Positions 18,493 through 41,874 of a DNA stretch of 41,874 bases are shown here, in pieces. Within the stretch, counting starts at the first letter, position 1; the number at the start of each line of letters is the position of its first letter. This DNA comes from a virus, in IMG/VR virus record IMGVR_UViG_3300009285_000025. The stretch is one strand, 5' to 3'. Both the position numbers and the translations under genes were made by a program. A model generated the notes under the pieces. That model ran no database searches and was not told the DNA's origin. It saw only the letters and a list, made by a program, of their open reading frames with translations.

Positions 18493-18741
18493 TTACTTTC
18501 TAAGTCCCTTCAATGTCTGGGCTAACCGCTTTCGCCTTTTCATTAAAGGACTATCGCTTTCCTTTATTTCCATCTTTATCATAGGTATCTTTTTACCCAT
18601 CGGAACATTCAAGCCCTTATGCAATGCCCCCTTCTTTTTTATCGCTCCTGCTATCCAATTCTCCGCCATACCGCTACCTCCCTTCTTCATATACTTTTGC
18701 TTCGCCATTCCATTCATATCTGATACCATTCCTGTTGCCAT
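18493..18741 (-). CDS. Small basic conserved-looking phage protein (82 aa).
   Basis: ORF track. It contains a KKGALHKGLNVPMGKKIP motif and a basic C-terminus. Confidence 0.5.
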   Translation of the reverse strand: MATGMVSDMNGMAKQKYMKKGGSGMAENWIAGAIKKKGALHKGLNVPMGKKIPMIKMEIKESDSPLMKRRKRLAQTLKGLRK

Positions 18742-21459: not shown

Positions 21460-22146
21460 TTAGTAATCTACTCCTAACTGAAAATCATAGGGCGATTCCC
21501 ACCGAGAATTACCGTTACGTAAATTCCTCGCCATTCCCCTTATATGCTCAATATGTGGAGACACCCTACTTGCCAATTTACTGCCCACAACTCCTTGACG
21601 CCATCTCTTCTGCGGAAACAATTTTGCCATACATAAATAACGCAACGCATCACACAAATGGTCGTCCACTTTTCTTATCTTTTCTCTCTGCCTATCATCC
21701 TTTACAACGCCCCTTACGTCCCTACGTCTATAATTTCTCATCTGGCGGAGTAGTTTATCATTCCCCTCACCATCAGACAAAATAAGAAGCTGTGGATTAT
21801 TCCACTCAAGACCTACGGGTTTATCCTTATCAATACGCATTAAAGACGAAACATAATTATTCCCCGCATCTACCGAGTTGTCACCATCTATACAATAAAT
21901 ACCATTTGCAATATATTCTAATTTTACCTGACTTCCTGGGTCTATAACATAGGTTGGAAGCACACCATCGATTGCCTGATAAGATAAAAATTCCTTCGAG
22001 TGTTCAGCTACAATCTTATTCTCCGCTAAATAAGAACGATAAACAATCATATTCCCATAAAAATCCACTGCTCCCCAAACCGCAGCAGTAAAATACCCCG
22101 TATCGATAGCAACCCCATATTCCCATTCTGGATTTAGCACTATCAC
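21460..22146 (-). CDS. terL: Terminase large subunit, C-terminal nuclease domain, as a separate ORF (228 aa).
   Basis: It has RNaseH-like nuclease motifs VAIDTGYFTAAVWGAVD and DDHLCDALRYL. The GTG start at 22146 overlaps the upstream TGA (ATGTGA) and lies 5 nt after AAGGAGGAGGTG. Confidence 0.8.
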   Translation of the reverse strand: MIVLNPEWEYGVAIDTGYFTAAVWGAVDFYGNMIVYRSYLAENKIVAEHSKEFLSYQAIDGVLPTYVIDPGSQVKLEYIANGIYCIDGDNSVDAGNNYVSSLMRIDKDKPVGLEWNNPQLLILSDGEGNDKLLRQMRNYRRRDVRGVVKDDRQREKIRKVDDHLCDALRYLCMAKLFPQKRWRQGVVGSKLASRVSPHIEHIRGMARNLRNGNSRWESPYDFQLGVDY

Positions 22147-22997
22147 ATCGCCACCTCCTCCTTTGCTATCTGGTAAAACTCATCTACCTTTTTAGAGGAA
22201 ATTAAAATATTGTCAAGTTCTTGATATATAATCTTACTTCGTGTCGCATACTTGCCGTAAATTCTCGCCTGAATCTCATCATCACCCAATGTCCGCATAA
22301 ACCTTTTAATCTGCACATCCGTAAGTAGTGGATTATCCCATATCTCTGGACTGAATATCTGAGAATCAGTATCAAATTCTACTGTCCCCTGCTTATCCCA
22401 TATATCCGTATATGTCCAGTCCATCCCTTCAATCGGAACAATCGTCATCCACAGACACCCATCCGTTGCAACAAGGCGAGCAACTATTTCCGTAAATATA
22501 TCTCTTGGACATTCCTCATCAACCCAAGCCCAATCAATATTCGCACCCGCAAATGCCTCCCTGCCGCTCTCTGCCGACTTGAATCGGACAATACAGCCAT
22601 CTGTAGTATGTAATGTCCTATACCTTTTCTCATAAGAAGCAATTTTATCTTTAGGAAAGAAATCAAAAAAGCGTCTCTGGGCGACTTCTAATCCTTTAGA
22701 GAAATCAGTAGAAACAACCCACCCCTCATTAGGCATACGGATATTCTTGCGATACGGATGAGTACCAAGAGAAAACCGTCCACCTTCAACAGCTGCCCCT
22801 GTGGTTTTGCCTACCTTATTAGAACCAATTACATATCTAAACGGCTTCTGACACTGATGAAACGCTTTTGCCCATTCAAACGGCTCGTAAAAATCTATTC
22901 CCCTTGCATCTTTACGGCTTTTCAGTTCCGTCAGAAGTTCCGTTATCTCCTGAAGTTGCGGATTCCTTTTCGCCTTTTGCATCAGCATTCTCCACAA
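22143..22997 (-). CDS. terL: Terminase large subunit, N-terminal ATPase domain, as a separate ORF (284 aa).
   Basis: It has Walker A GSNKVGKT, Walker B IDWAWVDEE, a coupling motif TIVP and the domain-end motif RIYGKY. Confidence 0.85.
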   Translation of the reverse strand: MWRMLMQKAKRNPQLQEITELLTELKSRKDARGIDFYEPFEWAKAFHQCQKPFRYVIGSNKVGKTTGAAVEGGRFSLGTHPYRKNIRMPNEGWVVSTDFSKGLEVAQRRFFDFFPKDKIASYEKRYRTLHTTDGCIVRFKSAESGREAFAGANIDWAWVDEECPRDIFTEIVARLVATDGCLWMTIVPIEGMDWTYTDIWDKQGTVEFDTDSQIFSPEIWDNPLLTDVQIKRFMRTLGDDEIQARIYGKYATRSKIIYQELDNILISSKKVDEFYQIAKEEVAM

Positions 22998-24413: not shown

Positions 24414-24442
24414 TTGACATAACTATAAACAGGCAGTATTAT
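24414..24442 (+). promoter_or_regulatory. Sigma-70-type early promoter.
   Basis: TTGACA (24414..24419), a 17-nt spacer, then TATTAT (24437..24442). Confidence 0.6.
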
Positions 24443-24449
24443 TCCTTTT

Positions 24450-24562
24450 ATGAAAACGCTTTATGAAAAGAATAATTAAAATTGCAGGGGGTAGGGCTAC
24501 ATCTCTCGCTATGTCGAAAGGCACGGCGGGGCGTTTTCATCCTACCCTCTGCTGTTTTTTTT
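24450..24562 (+). promoter_or_regulatory. Leader RNA element E1: interleaved helices A/A' and B/B' ending in a U-tract (terminator/attenuator).
   Basis: A 24450..24459 (atgaaaacgc) pairs with A' 24531..24540 (gcgttttcat). B 24484..24495 (gcagggggtagg) pairs with B' 24541..24552 (cctaccctctgc), 12 bp with one G-U. A T8 run follows at 24555..24562. Confidence 0.6.
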
Positions 24563-26187: not shown

Positions 26188-26391
26188 TAACTACCCCCCT
26201 ACCTATACCATAAAACCCTTAAATTTCAATAATTTAATAATTTATATACTACTACTACTACTACTAACTACACTACTACTTATACTATAACTATATATAT
26301 GATAGATACTTATGCGTAGTTTTACACATTACTACACTCCTTATGTAGTTACTACTTATACCCCTTATGTAGTAATGTAGTAAGTGTAGTA
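26176..26391. repeat. Iteron-like arrays: TGTAGTA repeats facing a (TAC)n/TACTAC array around an AT-rich core.
   Basis: TGTAGTA occurs at 26176, 26183, 26368, 26376 and 26385, with variants at 26344 and others. (TAC)5 at 26247..26261 continues as taactacactactac. TACTACA occurs at 26330. CCTTATGTAGT is present twice (26339, 26363). The core reads ctatatatatgatagat. Confidence 0.7.
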
Positions 26392-26818
26392 ACTTTAATT
26401 TTGCAAATTTCACAGATTCAGACCTGCAAACTCTGGCTATCTATCCTAAATACCGCCCCCCTTTATTCTAATCACTTTTCAAAATCTTAGGCACAGATGC
26501 AGAAGAGAGGGGGTATTGTCCCAATGACGCCACCCCCATAGGTAACCCTGTATGGTGTTACAGCGTTACAGTTATGCGGTATTAACATATATGGTAGTGT
26601 AGGTAGGTAGAAGTAGATAGGTGATGTTTCTTTACTGCCTATACGTTGGGGTTATATAGGGGCAAGGTAAGTAAAGAATGGCATAAAGGTAACTTCTCAT
26701 ATGGCATATAGGCAAGATTGCATACCTCGAGGTGTTTATCTCTACCTCTCTATCAACCGCCGTCCCTGTCTTTAGTGCGTTAGTTACTGCATTAAATACT
26801 ATCAAGGTCAAGGTATGA

Positions 26819-26840
26819 TATGTTGATAATATGTTGATAA
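26819..26840. repeat. 11-bp tandem repeat tatgttgataa x2, plus a partial third copy.
   Basis: Read directly: tatgttgataa tatgttgataa aatgtttaac. Confidence 0.8.
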
Positions 26841-26913
26841 AATGTTTAACTATCAAGTAATCACTGTTGCCCCCTGCCTATTCGCTATTTGCCTACGTTT
26901 GCATTATGCCTAT

Positions 26914-26933
26914 ATCCCTATCTATCCCTATCA
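26914..26933. repeat. 10-bp tandem repeat atccctatc(t/a) x2.
   Basis: Read directly. Confidence 0.8.
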
Positions 26934-27110
26934 CCTCATAATAACTATTGACATTTACGCCACTGCGTGGAGTTGCTCTACATTCAGCGACAGGGTCTCA
27001 AGTGTAGAATTACTTCCCTTTATCCATAGTTTGCGTCTGGCGGGTATCTACAAGCAATGTTAATTTCACGAATTTAAGGGTATGCCCTAAATCCTTGTAA
27101 ATTAAAGGGT

Positions 27111-27130
27111 ATAGGCAAATATAGGCAAAA
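27111..27130. repeat. 10-bp tandem repeat ataggcaaa(t/a) x2.
   Basis: Read directly. It shares the ATAGGCA core with five other dispersed copies in the region. Confidence 0.8.
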
Positions 27131-27200
27131 TCCTTGCATTATCAATAGATTAAAAGACATCACTACTTGGCAGTTGATGTATCATTCCTTGAAAAAGATT

Positions 27201-27250
27201 TTGCCTCTCACTTGCCTCTCACTTGCCTCTCACTTGCCTCTCACTTGCCT
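27201..27250. repeat. Perfect 11-bp tandem repeat ttgcctctcac x4.5.
   Basis: Copies lie at 27201, 27212, 27223 and 27234, with a partial copy at 27245..27250. TTGCCT is the reverse complement of the AGGCAA core at 27111..27130. Confidence 0.9.
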
Positions 27251-27750
27251 ATGCTTTGTCTCTATACTGCGTGCGGTCTGGTTGAAGTATCCTTCTTTTA
27301 TACCACTAATGGTATAAAATGTGTCAGGCAGTATTACTATTACTACCTATGGTATGAGTTAAGTATTTTTGCGTATTAGTTAAGTGAGATAGGGTAAGAG
27401 GGGACAGAGTTGTATAGTAGGTATGCAGTTTGGGTTCGGGTAATTTTTACAATTACTTTTTTTTGAGGTTTATAGAAGGTTCTACAGGTTTGGCAGTTAC
27501 AATCTTTTTGGTATGGATAAGACATATTGATATATTAGTATTTAGTTTTAATTTTGTCAAGTTAGCAGGTAAAAATAAATTCCCCTATATTATGGTTTTC
27601 TATACTACATATAGATAAAAACAATTCGTGTGTTCATACTAATAGTATATGGTATCTATATATTGTGTGATTAAAATTATATTATACTATATATGGTAGT
27701 TTTGTCAGTCAAACTATTTTAACTATTTTTACGAATTATGCAAATTATAT

Positions 27751-27778
27751 TTGTAATATCGCCGAGATGTGATATAGT
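27751..27778 (+). promoter_or_regulatory. Sigma-70-type promoter candidate with an extended -10.
   Basis: TTGTAA (27751..27756), a 16-nt spacer ending in TGA, then TATAGT (27773..27778). Confidence 0.4.
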
Positions 27779-27794
27779 CCTTATAGATTTAATA

Positions 27795-27906
27795 TGATAC
27801 GCATAGGAAGAATAATAATAAAGAGTAGAGCGGGAACGGGCATTTCTGTTCGTGGATGTATGTCTGCGGATACTATGCGTATCAACCGTCCCCGCTCTTA
27901 TTTTTT
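27795..27906 (+). promoter_or_regulatory. Leader RNA element E2, with the same interleaved A-B-A'-B'-U-tract architecture as E1.
   Basis: A 27795..27806 (tgatacgcatag) pairs perfectly with A' 27873..27884 (ctatgcgtatca). B 27827..27839 (agagcgggaacgg) pairs with B' 27886..27898 (ccgtccccgctct) with one mismatch. The sequence ttattttttat follows. Confidence 0.6.
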
Positions 27907-31551: not shown

Positions 31552-31717
31552 AACTGGAAGGATAATTTTAGAAGCAAATAATTTAGCTGATGTTAAAATA
31601 AAATTTAAGGAACAGTTTCATAAAGACAAAGATATTGATGAATTCGATAGTATATGGACATTGCTTCTTGAGAATAATAGGATATTGGAGGTGAAAGATG
31701 ATAAATGTAAATGTTGA
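31529..31717 (+). CDS. Hypothetical 62-aa protein.
   Basis: ORF track, with GAGGAG upstream. Confidence 0.5.
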   Translation: MKIGLIDRTGRIILEANNLADVKIKFKEQFHKDKDIDEFDSIWTLLLENNRILEVKDDKCKC

Positions 31718-31922
31718 TTTTAGTAAAGCAGTTTTTACGGACATCCGTGCTGATGAGTGGGAGTTAGATAGTATTTGCTTGCCTAACATTCTAATTCTAA
31801 AACGCACAAAGGATTTGCGGAATTTCAGCGGCCACAAAGGGTTGAGCGTTCCATTTGAGAATTTAGGGATGTTCTCTGTTCGTAATTTGTCTATTTACCC
31901 AAAATATAGGAAGGAGAAATAA
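31698..31922 (+). CDS. Small protein, paralogue A (74 aa) of 34748..34984.
   Basis: ORF track, with GGAGG upstream. It is roughly 60% identical by eye to the 78-aa product at 34748 (shared NVDFS.AVFTD..EWELD.ICLPNILILK...VPFEN.G.FS.RNLSI.P). Confidence 0.6.
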   Translation: MINVNVDFSKAVFTDIRADEWELDSICLPNILILKRTKDLRNFSGHKGLSVPFENLGMFSVRNLSIYPKYRKEK

Positions 31923-33544: not shown

Positions 33545-34123
33545 ATGAATAAAATAAAAACAATTTTTGAAAGGGACTGGAATGGGAATAGAGCGTGTAT
33601 TGATAAATATGTCGAGGGATTTGACTCTTTACAATTAAATGAGGCGGTGGCTACGGAGAAATTAGATGGAACTAATATACGAGTTACTGTTAGAAACCAC
33701 ATTGTAGTTAGGATTGAAAAAAGAAAGAACCCAGATAGAATACAAAAACATAGAGGTATAGAAGAGCCGTGGTATATTGATGCTTCGGAGAGTGATTCTT
33801 CGGATAAGTGGATTTTTGACGCAGTTCAGAATACTAATTTATCTCAAATTCCCGATGGTGAATGGAGTGCGGAGGCAGTGGGTAAAAATATACAAGGCAA
33901 TCCGTTAAATCTTGACAAAAATATTGCAGTATTCTTTTCATTAGGGCAATGTCCTATATTTGAAGATGCACCGATTACATACGAGGCATTGAGAGAGTGG
34001 CTTCCAAGTCAAAAAAGTAAATATGGGAATAACTGTTTGATTGAAGGTATTGTGTGGCATTGCAAAAATGGGGAGATGTTTAAGATAAAGACGAAGGATT
34101 TTAAGGGTGATGGGAGGAGATGA
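33545..34123 (+). CDS. Minimal ATP-dependent RNA (or DNA) ligase-like nucleotidyltransferase (192 aa).
   Basis: It has covalent nucleotidyltransferase motif I ATEKLDGTN, motif IV EGIVWH and motif V FKIKTKDF. Its size fits a stand-alone adenylyltransferase domain. Confidence 0.6.
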   Translation: MNKIKTIFERDWNGNRACIDKYVEGFDSLQLNEAVATEKLDGTNIRVTVRNHIVVRIEKRKNPDRIQKHRGIEEPWYIDASESDSSDKWIFDAVQNTNLSQIPDGEWSAEAVGKNIQGNPLNLDKNIAVFFSLGQCPIFEDAPITYEALREWLPSQKSKYGNNCLIEGIVWHCKNGEMFKIKTKDFKGDGRR

Positions 34124-34747: not shown

Positions 34748-34984
34748 ATGGTAGATGTGAACATTGATTTTAGTAACGCAGTTTTTACGGACACGCAGGA
34801 TAATGAGTGGGAGTTAGATGAGATTTGCTTACCTAACATCTTAATTCTAAAACACGCAGAAGGTCGGTATAATCACAGCGACCACGAAAGGTTGCACGTT
34901 CCGTTTGAAAATATAGGGATATTCTCTATTAGGAATTTATCTATTTGTCCAAATGAAAAAGGGGAGGTGAAAGATGGGAATTAA
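34748..34984 (+). CDS. Small protein, paralogue B (78 aa) of 31698..31922.
   Basis: ORF track, with AAAGGAG upstream. See paralogue A. Confidence 0.6.
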   Translation: MVDVNIDFSNAVFTDTQDNEWELDEICLPNILILKHAEGRYNHSDHERLHVPFENIGIFSIRNLSICPNEKGEVKDGN

Positions 34985-37770: not shown

Positions 37771-38367
37771 ATGAATAGACGATATATATATAGCAACGAT
37801 TGGAAGGATAAATGGAACAAGTTAATAATACTGGGCAGGGAAATTGTAGCACGTCTTCTGAAGCAATTCAGAATCCGTTCCTATCGTTGCACCCTGCCCT
37901 TTATTTGTTTCGGAGAAGATAGGAGAATGAGCAAAAATAAAAGAAGGGCTTATTTAATGGGGACATATAAAAAGTTTTTTGATTATGAATGTATGAATCC
38001 TTTATGTAAGAATGGACTAAATCCAGAAGTCCATCATATTACGCCTCTACAGGCAGGTGGTGTGGATGCCGTATGTAATTATATTTTGTTATGTCAAGAT
38101 TGCCACGATATTAAAGGTCTCCATAGTGAGTGGACAAAATGGGAATTTAAGCTAACTTATTGGAAATGCCAAGCCGAAATAAATAAATATGGAAGAGCTT
38201 TAGATACTTTACTTTATGTAAAAGGTGGTATAAAAGATAGTCAAACATTACAACATAGAATAGATGAGTTAAAGCAGGGCATTAACATTGAAATGGATGA
38301 AAATGAAGCCCTTGCCTCCACCTCTATAGGAAATAGGGGCATTATTCGAGGTTTATCGGGGCTGTAG
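37771..38367 (+). CDS. HNH endonuclease (198 aa; the start could also be 37927).
   Basis: It contains CMNPLCKNGLNPEVHHITPLQAGGVDAVCNYILLCQDCHDIKGLH. The ATG at 37771 follows GAAGGAAAA; the track start at 37726 is a GTG. Confidence 0.75.
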   Translation: MNRRYIYSNDWKDKWNKLIILGREIVARLLKQFRIRSYRCTLPFICFGEDRRMSKNKRRAYLMGTYKKFFDYECMNPLCKNGLNPEVHHITPLQAGGVDAVCNYILLCQDCHDIKGLHSEWTKWEFKLTYWKCQAEINKYGRALDTLLYVKGGIKDSQTLQHRIDELKQGINIEMDENEALASTSIGNRGIIRGLSGL

Positions 38368-38768: not shown

Positions 38769-39425
38769 CTATGATGCAATGAGTTGAGGTCTGCTTTTAA
38801 TAACTTCCTTTATTCTTTGTAATGCTTTTATGTGTAGTTGGCATATTCTCGATTCGGACAACTGTAACATAACCCCTATTTTTTTAAGCGTATGGGATTG
38901 AATATAACGAAGCTCGATTATCTGCCCCTCTCGTTTTGGTAGATATTTGCACATATAATCTATCAACTCCGAAGGGAAGTAATCATCTTTGACTGACGGC
39001 TCTGTCGTATAGCCCTGACGGTCATCATTATTGATATTACGAGAGAAATATAATTGCTCTCTTGTTATACTTACTTTACGCATTATCGTATCATCACTTG
39101 GCAAGCGATTATGCTCTAATGTATATCCTTGAGAAAATGTATCTATCCGTTTTTGCGTATTAAATACATTTCTACTTTTTAGTAATCGTCTTAAGTAATC
39201 ATAAATCGCACCTCGTATCCGTATCCTTGCATATATGCCAAACTTTACATTTCTTGCTGTATCGAACTTATCAATAGCGTCAAGTAATCCCTTACTGCCC
39301 TCTTGTATAAGGTCATCTATCTGCACAGATTGGGGGACGGCTTTAGCAAAATGCGTTGCTTCATTTATCACAAGCGGTAGGTATTCTTTGACTATTGTAT
39401 CATGCTTCAAGATACTGCATTTCAT
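38769..39425 (-). CDS. FliA/sigma-28-like (group 3) sigma-70 family sigma factor (218 aa).
   Basis: Region 2 reads EYLPLV...IDDLIQEGSKGLLDAIDKFD...FGIYARIRIRGAIYDYLRR. Region 4 reads LPKREGQIIELRYIQSHTLKKIGVMLQLSESRICQLHIKALQRIK. Confidence 0.85.
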   Translation of the reverse strand: MKCSILKHDTIVKEYLPLVINEATHFAKAVPQSVQIDDLIQEGSKGLLDAIDKFDTARNVKFGIYARIRIRGAIYDYLRRLLKSRNVFNTQKRIDTFSQGYTLEHNRLPSDDTIMRKVSITREQLYFSRNINNDDRQGYTTEPSVKDDYFPSELIDYMCKYLPKREGQIIELRYIQSHTLKKIGVMLQLSESRICQLHIKALQRIKEVIKSRPQLIAS

Positions 39426-39436
39426 TCTGGGGGGAT

Positions 39437-39466
39437 ACTTTAAGTTAATTCAGAAAGGGCTGTCAA
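39437..39466 (-). promoter_or_regulatory. Sigma-70-type promoter candidate for the sigma gene, implying a near-leaderless mRNA.
   Basis: The minus strand reads TTGACA, an 18-nt spacer, TAAAGT, then 11 nt (ATCCCCCCAGA) to the ATG. No SD is present. Confidence 0.35.
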
Positions 39467-39524
39467 GGATTATTTATAAATAATATTAAAGATTTTACTT
39501 GACTTCTGACGATAGGGTATATTA

Positions 39525-39621
39525 GGTATCCAGCTATTAAGCGAAAATAAAAGGTTGGTGAATATCCGACCTAATATTTAAGTCCTCACAATCTTTAGCT
39601 GGATACCGTGAGGACTTTTTT
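39525..39621 (+). promoter_or_regulatory. Leader RNA element E3, with the same interleaved A-B-A'-B'-U-tract architecture as E1 and E2.
   Basis: A 39525..39536 (ggtatccagcta) pairs perfectly with A' 39596..39607 (tagctggatacc). B 39580..39589 (aagtcctcac) pairs with B' 39608..39617 (gtgaggactt). A T6 run lies at 39616..39621. There is an inner hairpin at 39552..39572. Confidence 0.6.
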
Positions 39622-39630
39622 ATTTGCATA

Positions 39631-39984
39631 ATGAATAAAAGTTACAGAGAGAATTATTTAATATCAAATCATTGGAAAGAAACAAAGAATAAATTTAGAC
39701 AATCTAAATTGTATAAAGGAAAATGCAGTATCTGCTATCGTTTAGTAAAAATAGATATTCATCATCTAACATATAAGAGAATTAGTAAGGAATATTTAAG
39801 CGATTTAATGGCAGTATGTAGAGAATGCCATAATCTAATACATAATCTACCTATAAATCAATCCATACGAGAAAAAACAAAACGAATAAAAAAAAGGATA
39901 AAGAAATGGATTAGACGAACTTACTGGGATAAAGGTAGAAAATGTCCCCAATACTATGAATTACCCAACTTAAGCTCTGGCTAA
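39631..39984 (+). CDS. HNH-like endonuclease (117 aa).
   Basis: CSICYRLVKIDIHHLTYKR...AVCRECHNLIHN gives a CxxC...HH...CxxCH pattern. There is no SD upstream. Confidence 0.6.
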   Translation: MNKSYRENYLISNHWKETKNKFRQSKLYKGKCSICYRLVKIDIHHLTYKRISKEYLSDLMAVCRECHNLIHNLPINQSIREKTKRIKKRIKKWIRRTYWDKGRKCPQYYELPNLSSG

Positions 39985-40011: not shown

Positions 40012-40491
40012 ATGAATAAACATAATTTAGTATCAAGAGATAAATTACAACACTATAAGATATATAATCGCAGACATCCCCAATTAGCAGAACTTGAAAT
40101 GCTAAAGATTATTATGTATGATTTAGGAATAGTTCCAATCTATCAATCTATTATAGGTTCTATAATACCTGATATACTAATAAAAACGAAAGGTAAGTCA
40201 AAGTGTAATTTATATATTCAAGTAGATGGTGAATATCATAATTGCAGAGAGCAAATGCAAAAGGATATTCGGCAAGACGCATACATTCACAGTAAGGGGC
40301 ATTTAGTATTAAGATTTACCAATAATGATGTTTTTAATAATAAGCAATATGTAATAAAGCAAATCGAAAGTTACTTAAAAATGTTCCCTAAAATACATCC
40401 ACAGAGATTTCATTCACCGCAAAGTAGAGAGCGTTTTATAAAAAATATACTTGGAATTAAAAAGGAATATCAAGAGCTATTATTAAAATAA
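40012..40491 (+). CDS. DUF559 / Vsr-like PD-(D/E)xK endonuclease domain protein (159 aa).
   Basis: IPDILIKTKGKSKCNLYIQVDGEYHNCREQMQKDIRQDAYIHSKGHLVLRFTNNDVF fits the DUF559 pattern. AAAGGAG lies upstream. Confidence 0.6.
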   Translation: MNKHNLVSRDKLQHYKIYNRRHPQLAELEMLKIIMYDLGIVPIYQSIIGSIIPDILIKTKGKSKCNLYIQVDGEYHNCREQMQKDIRQDAYIHSKGHLVLRFTNNDVFNNKQYVIKQIESYLKMFPKIHPQRFHSPQSRERFIKNILGIKKEYQELLLK

Positions 40492-40492
40492 A

Positions 40493-40524
40493 AACTCTCA
40501 CCAATCGTGAGATTAGTGAGAGTT
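40493..40524 (-). terminator. Terminator at the end of the late (minus-strand) transcription unit.
   Basis: A 9-bp stem AACTCTCAC/GTGAGAGTT is followed on the minus strand by TTTTTATTTTAAT. A duplicated GTGAGA arm offers an alternative shorter stem. Confidence 0.55.
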
Positions 40525-41758: not shown

Positions 41759-41874
41759 CTAACCTAAAATTTCTATGCAATTATCTACTATCTTTTTACA
41801 ATGTTTAACGAATTCCATTTGCGAGCAATCTTTTTTAATCCAATTACACCACTTACAGCACGATATAACATTAT
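41759..41874 (-). CDS. C-terminal part of the junction-spanning 48-aa ORF (includes the duplicated 77 nt).
   Basis: The minus-strand frame from the repeat continues KKIVDNCIEILG and stops at a TAG (41759..41761). Confidence 0.5.
   Translation of the reverse strand, partial: NVISCCKWCNWIKKDCSQMEFVKHCKKIVDNCIEILG

Follow-up and report, generated by a model that had tools for sequence, protein, structure and literature searches.

The question raised by this locus is what the paired sequence called E3 does in the gap between a phage sigma factor gene and a pair of nuclease genes. E3 occupies positions 39525-39621 on the plus strand of IMG/VR virus record IMGVR_UViG_3300009285_000025, the whole of which (41,874 nucleotides, nt) is referred to here as the window. 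A first-pass annotation had described E3 as the third copy of a leader-type element, standing before an HNH/DUF559 pair and divergent from the sigma gene. Its repetition and placement are supported by our analysis, while the count is not: four copies were found, possibly with a weak fifth. With moderate confidence, we interpret E3 as a promoter-proximal leader, or attenuator, in which the 5′ strand of the RNA would clamp the loop of an intrinsic terminator and so set the read-through into the HNH and DUF559 genes. The start of this RNA, its termination and the direction of the clamp effect are what we infer from the DNA.

Layout of E3 and its copies

Two inverted repeats, two linkers and a thymine-rich tail make up the E3 leader:

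39525..39536 (+), strand A, ggtatccagcta, the 5′-terminal strand of the predicted leader RNA, pairing with A′
39537..39579 (+), linker L1, A-rich (gaaaataaaag) and holding a 7-bp hairpin at 39552-39572
39580..39589 (+), strand B, aagtcctcac, the 5′ arm of the predicted intrinsic terminator
39590..39595 (+), linker L2, the 6 nt from B to A′ and the shortest L2 among the seven elements compared below
39596..39607 (+), strand A′, tagctggatacc, the 3′ two-thirds of the terminator loop, pairing with A
39608..39617 (+), strand B′, gtgaggactt, the 3′ arm of the terminator, contiguous with A′
39616..39625 (+), U tract, T6 (39616-39621) followed by ATTT, where the leader RNA is expected to end

Direct reading shows that A is the exact reverse complement of A′ and B that of B′, giving helices of 12 and 10 bp without a mismatch, the second running into T6, with a spacing of 0 nt between A′ and B′, all as originally described. 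The additional hairpin between A and B, following the A-rich gaaaataaaag, was likewise confirmed by reading (39552-58 with 39566-72; seven pairs including one G-U, loop of 7 nt). The order A-B-A′-B′ is that of an H-type pseudoknot, with A′B′ forming one continuous strand, and the 6-nt L2 is, by geometric estimate, about the minimum needed to span a 12-bp helix. The two helices have no nucleotide in common and neither can be extended into the other; therefore, they do not constitute a classical terminator/antiterminator pair. The E3 region folds considerably more stably than its shuffles on both strands (z = -4.2 on the plus strand, -4.4 on the minus strand). The B/B′ helix with T6ATTT has the G+C-containing stem directly before a U tract that is expected of an intrinsic terminator, but its 18-nt loop is longer than the usual 3-8 nt. 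The loops of the other three copies are 45-51 nt long, and a standard scan for loops of 3-8 nt misses all copies.

The window was scanned for the full arrangement, namely A followed by B, an A′ that comes next and stands 0-2 nt from B′, and a T-rich tail behind B′. The four top matches (scores 60, 59, 55, and 50) all lie on the plus strand, where each marks the beginning of a block of rightward genes:

24450..24562 (+), Ea, before the primase gene (ATG 24584); A 24451-62 / A′ 24528-39, B 24484-96 / B′ 24540-52, then T8
27795..27906 (+), Eb, before the early operon (ATG 27920); A 27795-806 / A′ 27873-84 (perfect 12 bp), B 27827-39 / B′ 27886-98, then T6
37793..37910 (+), Ec, before a first HNH gene, HNH #1 (ATG 37927); A 37793-805 / A′ 37878-90 (13 bp, one mismatch), B 37833-40 / B′ 37892-99, then TTTATTTGTTT
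39525..39621 (+), E3, before a second HNH gene, HNH #2 (ATG 39631)

A weaker fifth match to the arrangement (score 48) lies at 26267-26392. In all four copies the T tract ends 5-21 nt, and the stem 13-31 nt, before a start codon.

The layout of E3 is more than a product of chance. Perfect 12-bp inverted repeats within 100 nt occur twice in the whole genome, against a shuffle mean of 0.5, and these two are the A/A′ pair of E3 and that of Eb (TGATACGCATAG / CTATGCGTATCA, 27795/27873). Across 150 Markov shuffles, a score of 50 was reached once in a single shuffle and twice in none, and with the T-tail requirement dropped the list was still led by the same four elements. The four copies are unrelated in sequence, with nothing conserved beyond A-rich and T-rich tracts. 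A common protein site therefore cannot explain them, and the conserved feature is the pairing.

Open reading frames (ORFs) overlap some of the copies. An AUG at the predicted +1 of Ea opens a 9-codon ORF (MKTLYEKNN*, 24450-24479), which may represent a leaderless mini-ORF lying over strand A; a diverged copy from a relative retains both the start and the stop codon (METPYGKNN*). A 198-aa ORF (37771-38367, from ATG 37771) reads through Ec, in frame with the ATG at 37927 that is preceded by a Shine-Dalgarno (SD) sequence, and the gene calls for HNH #1 differ between assemblies (198 aa versus 136 aa).

The phage is otherwise isolated, its nearest primase being 36% identical, and neither the sigma factor, nor the primase, nor the A′B′ 22-mer has a close match in IMG/VR. 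Relatives are designated here by L numbers, and 80 IMG/VR loci were recovered with a primase alignment. The best-scoring elements among these loci belong to the closest primase-bearing relatives, L014, L015/L016, and L019, and have the same layout with unrelated sequences. That of L014 (A:A′ 13 bp, B:B′ 16 bp) lies directly upstream of the primase gene, the position held by Ea, and those of L015/L016 and L019 have A:A′ helices of 12 and 13 bp and B:B′ helices of 11 and 14 bp, respectively. The stems of these elements lie within ~60 nt of a co-directional start codon, and good sigma-70 promoters stand immediately upstream in L014 and L019. Scores of at least 50 were obtained for 5 real against 0 shuffled elements in 0.5 Mb, and for 7 against 0 in 1.06 Mb. 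Taking the four window copies and these relatives together, the seven elements have A′-B′ gaps of 0, 1, 1, 0, 2, 0, and 0 nt, an A:A′ helix of always 12-13 bp, a B:B′ helix of 8 to 16 bp, an L1 of at least 16 nt, and an L2 of at least 6 nt. The L019 element (1280-1392, equal to L099 6902-7014) carries in addition a second perfect 13-bp helix, A0 (GGTAAGATCACGA / TCGTGATCTTACC), which begins at the predicted transcription start and ties the very first bases of the RNA to the terminator loop in ‘direct order’ with A:A′. The 5′ leader is thereby complementary to 26 of the 32 nucleotides in the loop. A weaker form of the layout (scores 41-44), with varied sequence, was seen in another primase-bearing group (L123/L124/L126 2698-2800; L134/L135 1340-1450; L138 1877-1990).

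One relative, L166, holds a diverged orthologue of Ea (84% nucleotide identity) in which both helices are kept. An A:U to G:C double change in A:A′ and a U:A to C:G double change in B:B′ are accompanied by four one-sided, wobble-compatible changes and two disruptive ones. In this pair of sequences 96% of cells are paired, compared with ~50% when the partners are slid by 1-3 columns. The shuffle control for covariation, made on these two sequences only, was not significant (the observed value was attained in 123 of 500 shuffles), and we regard the L166 comparison as supportive rather than decisive.

For E3 itself, the intergenic region is identical in all 12 of the related genomes that carry it; in the search for orthologues, a metagenome scan gave one fragment and a genome scan nothing. 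One diverged relative at the locus, L013, has another neighbor beside the sigma gene and lacks E3 as well as HNH and DUF559, which suggests that the promoter, E3 and the two nuclease genes form a separable module.

The candidate E3 promoter and the phage sigma factor

The sequence directly upstream of A provides a possible origin for the E3 transcript. The relevant features are:

39487..39494 (+), -35-like element of FliA/sigma-28 type, TAAAGATT, matching 7/8 positions of the consensus
39508..39515 (+), -10-like element, GACGATAG, matching 6/8 positions of the consensus, with a CGATA core
24370-24343 (-), second sigma-28-like motif, TAAAGATT-N12-GTCGATAG, upstream of the terminase/portal/capsid operon
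38769..39425 (-), phage sigma factor gene, FliA/WhiG-like, with Sigma70_r2 and r4 domains, divergent from E3
39437..39466 (-), promoter of the sigma gene, of sigma-70 type (TTGACA-18-TAAAGT), lying back to back with the candidate E3 promoter

The first-pass annotation had found no convincing sigma-70 promoter for E3 and had suggested that a non-sigma-70 promoter might read it. The only sigma-70-like candidates are TTGACT-13-TATATT and TTTACT-18-TATATT, as described there, and the suggestion fits both the candidate promoter TAAAGATT-N13-GACGATAG (39487-39515) and the adjoining FliA/WhiG-like sigma gene. The consensus for E. coli sigma-28 is TAAAGTTT-n11-GCCGATAA (PMC2859248). Two instances of the pattern TAAAGNTT-N10-15-CGATA were found in the window where 0.05 would be expected, the second being the motif that precedes the late operon. 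Differences from sigma-28/FliA promoters are the spacers of 12-13 rather than 11 nt, and a sigma factor that is encoded by the phage and falls below the family cut-offs. At 218 aa, this protein has no region-3 match, its best NCBIfam matches are FliA and WhiG, and its homologues are FliA/WhiG proteins. The motif is absent from 1.1 Mb of DNA from relatives in which the sigma gene is missing as well. The site at 18578 (minus strand), a third sigma-28-like candidate, was not counted, being a poorer match inside a small coding ORF. A weak motif of similar spacing stands before Ec (TGAAGGAAA-N14-CGATAT), which we take only tentatively as a real site.

If the phage sigma factor reads this motif, the E3 RNA should start at ~39522-39525, at the first base of A or just before it, since this is ~7-9 nt past the -10 element; the terminated leader RNA would then measure ~98 nt. 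By the same reasoning, the phage FliA-like sigma factor would drive both the late operon and E3/HNH/DUF559. Among the other copies, Ea follows the strongest sigma-70 promoter of the genome (TTGACA-17-TATTAT, 24414-24442), and its A strand begins at the predicted +1.

The sigma gene itself shows several further features. Its promoter leaves just 11 nt to the ATG, with no SD sequence, so the mRNA would be nearly leaderless, and L013 retains the promoter layout, its -10 element being TAAAAT. Compared with the L005-type genomes, the window shows 77 differences, every one of which lies within the sigma gene (38802-39297, including a 12-nt indel at 39016), with identical flanks. These appear to be two sigma alleles (85% amino acid identity) on one backbone, probably through a recombination patch. 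Diversification of the type produced by diversity-generating retroelements was considered and rejected, as the differences are mostly transitions and are not adenine-specific.

Read-through and the proposed role of the clamp

In the proposed model, transcription would begin at the FliA/sigma-28-type promoter, probably by polymerase carrying the phage FliA-like sigma factor, and the first 12 nt of the RNA (A) would pair with A′ in the terminator loop, directly against the 3′ arm of the terminator. In the presumed order of folding, A:A′ would form on emergence of A′ from the polymerase, at a time when B′ is still to be made. A helix of 12 bp is not expected to come apart during the fraction of a second that separates this moment from transcription of the U tract. 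With A:A′ already formed, the terminator would fold, or fail to fold, against the clamp. The clamp would in this way set the share of polymerases that stop, giving the ~98-nt leader RNA, and the share that continue into the SD-less HNH gene and DUF559. It is plausible that it lowers termination by steric or topological strain, as in the ‘tug-of-war’ effect discussed below.

Predicted folding energies are in line with the first steps of this model. Once A′ has been transcribed, A:A′ in E3 has a mean pair probability of 0.99, and in RNAs truncated at the end of A′ the mean lies at 0.8-1.0 in six of the seven elements, the exception being L019, where helix A0 competes with A:A′. The duplex energies of A:A′ range from -13 to -20 kcal/mol across the seven elements. 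Among the four window copies, A:A′ is strongest in E3 (-20.0 kcal/mol) and B:B′ is weakest there (-15.1 kcal/mol). The nested folds of an E3 RNA with its first base at 39524 are iso-energetic, at -31.3 kcal/mol for the A:A′ conformer and -30.7 kcal/mol for the terminator. If the clamp lowers termination, E3, with its strong clamp, weak terminator stem and 6-nt linker, would be the leakiest of the four, a leaky gate before two nuclease genes of which the HNH gene would also be poorly translated.

The genome gives a separate reason to expect read-through. For the primase gene and for the entire early operon, the sole visible promoter is upstream of their terminators, so some read-through must occur. 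In addition, stable structures that abut an intrinsic terminator via a short spacer have been described to suppress termination without sequence overlap, an effect that fades with a longer spacer (Bushhouse, Fu & Lucks, bioRxiv 10.64898/2026.06.17.733018). In the seven elements, too, a structure abuts the terminator with a spacer of 0-2 nt and no overlap. As A:A′ is the sole conserved feature besides the terminator, this precedent leads us to favor an attenuator, fixed or tunable, in which the clamp lowers rather than raises termination.

Several observations weigh against this interpretation. The blocking structure of the tug-of-war systems abuts the 5′ arm of the terminator, whereas the clamp of E3-type elements sits within the loop and adjoins the 3′ arm. 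For Ea, Eb, and Ec, nested folding favors the terminator conformer over A:A′ by 6-16 kcal/mol, and the L2 linkers of these copies are 31-37 nt long, so both helices could coexist unstrained and the clamp need not oppose termination. We found no signal that would switch E3, and no antiterminator protein, Q and N homologues included, was recognized among ~40 ORFs compared with Pfam or PHROGs, many of which are without a match. The invariance of E3 in 12 relatives means that support for its helices comes only from paralogues and from an orthologue of another copy. As to the promoter, both window motifs have spacers of 12-13 nt instead of the canonical 11, and the weak sigma-70-like TTTACT-18-TATATT (9/12 matches) overlaps the same region.

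The most serious competing explanation, which we nevertheless consider unlikely, accepts both helices and gives the clamp another task. A:A′ and B:B′ would form together as a pseudoknot-capped terminator with a coaxial stack of 21-29 bp, in which the clamp helps termination or is neutral to it. Its main job would be to shield the unit against transcription arriving from upstream and to hide the 5′ end, yielding a nuclease-resistant leader RNA and mRNA 5′ end, and read-through would depend on something else. Much of the geometry suits such a structure: the gap is 0-2 nt with never an overlap, A:A′ is constant at about one helical turn, and the linkers of the seven elements (L1 of at least 16 nt, L2 of at least 6 nt) are by estimate just enough for the H-type. 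The strand A (A0 in L019) begins at the predicted +1 or +2 in Ea, E3, and L019, and by summed duplex energies the pseudoknot would be more stable than any other state. What speaks against it is again the position of the terminators, since strong constitutive termination behind the sole visible promoters would starve the primase and early genes of transcripts, barring an unseen antitermination factor. In a further, improbable reading, E3 would be a site of processive antitermination comparable to lambda pR′-tR′/Q, nut/N or HK022 put, with the terminator gating the unit until a phage factor, or the structured RNA on its own, renders the polymerase resistant to terminators. The repetition of promoter, ~100-nt RNA, terminator and genes at every rightward unit resembles the lambda late region, and putRNA is reportedly a nascent RNA able to act alone. 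No Q, N or other antiterminator homologue was present among the ORFs scanned, however, the strict 0-2 nt adjacency of A′ and B′ points to a local effect, and the copies have no shared conserved sequence.

Equally improbable is that the ~98-nt product is itself the functional molecule, for example as a decoy or an Hfq-type regulator, and that its place before HNH is incidental. The first-pass annotation had raised a stand-alone small RNA, and E3 does come with a candidate promoter and a predicted U-tailed terminator of its own. The A-rich L1 shows AAN/ARN-like repeats in Ea, Eb, and L016. There is also a weak resemblance to ctRNA_pT181 (RF00242; 24.6 bits, E = 0.34 in a 301-nt search), which is far below the gathering score of 56, was not repeated for Ea or Eb, and was rejected as a chance-level match. 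All seven elements stand just before a co-directional start codon, and the copies offer no common sequence by which a shared target could be defined. Finally, B/B′ with T6 would be a plausible ordinary terminator of upstream rightward genes, for transcripts running antisense through the sigma gene, and A/A′ either an inverted repeat arisen by chance or an element acting at the DNA level, for instance a protein operator or a cruciform. We disfavor this explanation as highly improbable: the recurrence of the layout (four times here, and in relatives) with differing sequences excludes a common protein site, L166 shows covariation, and each element is oriented like the gene downstream of it, with its T tract on the coding strand in every case.

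Three variants of control were tried and set aside. Escape from termination by locally initiated RNAs only is not generally supported, as the equilibrium probabilities of A:A′ are insensitive to upstream extension in all copies except Ea, although the full-length comparison for E3 shifts by ~4 kcal/mol with such extension. Leader-peptide attenuation was rejected as a general mechanism, with short AUG ORFs in Ea and Eb and none in E3, and countertranscript control was rejected because no minus-strand promoter faces into E3.

The attenuator that we favor has features in common with several known systems. It resembles the classical attenuators (trp, the pT181 repC leader, T-box, PyrR) in its leader position between promoter and gene and in having an upstream strand that pairs before the terminator is complete. 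In those systems the antiterminator shares nucleotides with the terminator stem, whereas E3 shares none; E3 also differs in having neither a countertranscript promoter nor a leader-peptide ORF common to the copies. Lambda pR′-tR′ (6S RNA) offers the same succession of a promoter, a short terminated RNA, and a gene block in need of read-through, here found per rightward unit, but no Q-like protein was found in this phage. We know of no pairing between the 5′ end and the terminator loop in lambda.

A functional terminator loop is also known from the HMP-PP (thiS) riboswitch, a terminator-embedded aptamer in which a pseudoknot with loop nucleotides competes with termination, and in which ligand binding is accompanied by conservation of many nucleotides above 97% (PMC6478431). 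The phage elements, in contrast, conserve only pairing. Neither the conserved ligand-pocket nucleotides of a riboswitch nor any shared sequence was seen among the copies, Rfam gave nothing at gathering thresholds across the whole window, and permissive Rfam searches of E3, Ea, and Eb returned only sub-threshold, inconsistent matches. Relative to the tug-of-war systems, the elements differ in that one strand of the clamp is the 5′ end of the RNA, and in lacking a ligand pocket or conserved sequence where the tug-of-war structure is stabilized by a ligand. No description of a terminator loop pairing with the 5′ end of its RNA was found in the phage literature, and the layout of E3 for the control of read-through is unusual and apparently undescribed.

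It is possible, if somewhat doubtful, that these elements represent a new class of sequence-independent, ligand-free cis-regulatory RNAs in tailed phages, in which pairing of the transcript 5′ end with the terminator loop over 12-13 bp, abutting the 3′ arm, determines by mechanical means whether the terminator folds, gating every rightward unit and tuned by helix stabilities and linker lengths. If true, read-through would be set naturally without protein or ligand, through topology rather than a competing sequence, and the tug-of-war idea would extend to a new geometry and to phages. The elements show that terminator loops, which are usually ignored, can carry conserved pairing information, and they escape both sequence-based searches such as Rfam and searches for short-loop terminators. 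The model also yields a testable transcription program for an uncultivated aquifer phage, in which the early units and the sigma gene would be read from host sigma-70 promoters, and the phage FliA-like sigma would then serve the packaging/head operon and the HNH/DUF559 cassette.

Genome context and genes behind E3

An exact 77-bp terminal repeat (1-77 and 41798-41874), an assembly overlap, identifies the record as a complete circular tailed-phage genome of 41,797 bp; the G+C content of the window is 39.8%, and no tRNA or tmRNA was found. The minus strand carries a packaging/head/tail operon with a small terminase, terminase pieces, portal and major head protein, and the plus strand carries the primase gene and a long early block (Gam, RecT, SSB, RNA-ligase-like, deoxyribosyltransferase, RusA). 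E3 lies inside a 205-bp gap between the sigma gene (38769-39425, minus strand) and the AT-rich HNH/DUF559 cassette (26-30% G+C), which comprises two ORFs:

39631..39984 (+), HNH endonuclease ORF (HNH #2), 117 aa, matching phrog_8060 (E = 1.8e-10) and several HNH PHROGs
40012..40491 (+), DUF559/Vsr-like nuclease ORF, matching Pfam DUF559 (E = 5e-10), with a strong SD sequence

The HNH ORF starts 9 nt past the T6 run and 5 nt past the T6ATTT tract. That its ATG at 39631 lacks an SD sequence, as first reported, was confirmed by the preceding sequence, ttttttatttgcata. Its Pfam HNH match is weak, several assemblies are without this gene call, and neither the HNH nor the DUF559 protein has relatives in a word-indexed protein search. 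A hairpin at the right edge of the cassette (40493-40524) has arms, AACTCTCAC / GTGAGAGTT, that resemble B/B′ of E3 (AAGTCCTCAC / GTGAGGACTT), with a T tract on the minus strand only. The likeness of the two hairpins means that the cassette is bracketed, with the terminator polarity facing inward.

The remaining observations concern other parts of the genome. The large terminase appears to be split into two minus-strand ORFs (22143-22997 and 21460-22146), with a weak TerL match in the second only. Within the early operon, the RNA-ligase-like ORF (33545-34123) matches Pfam RLIG1 (E = 5.5e-13), and a 206-nt direct repeat (31698-31903 and 34748-34953, 78% identity) probably derives from paralogous genes. 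A 1.7-kb non-coding stretch at 26188-27790, with four 11-bp TTGCCTCTCAC repeats (27201-27263) and TACTAC-rich repeats (26250-26400), is probably a replication origin.

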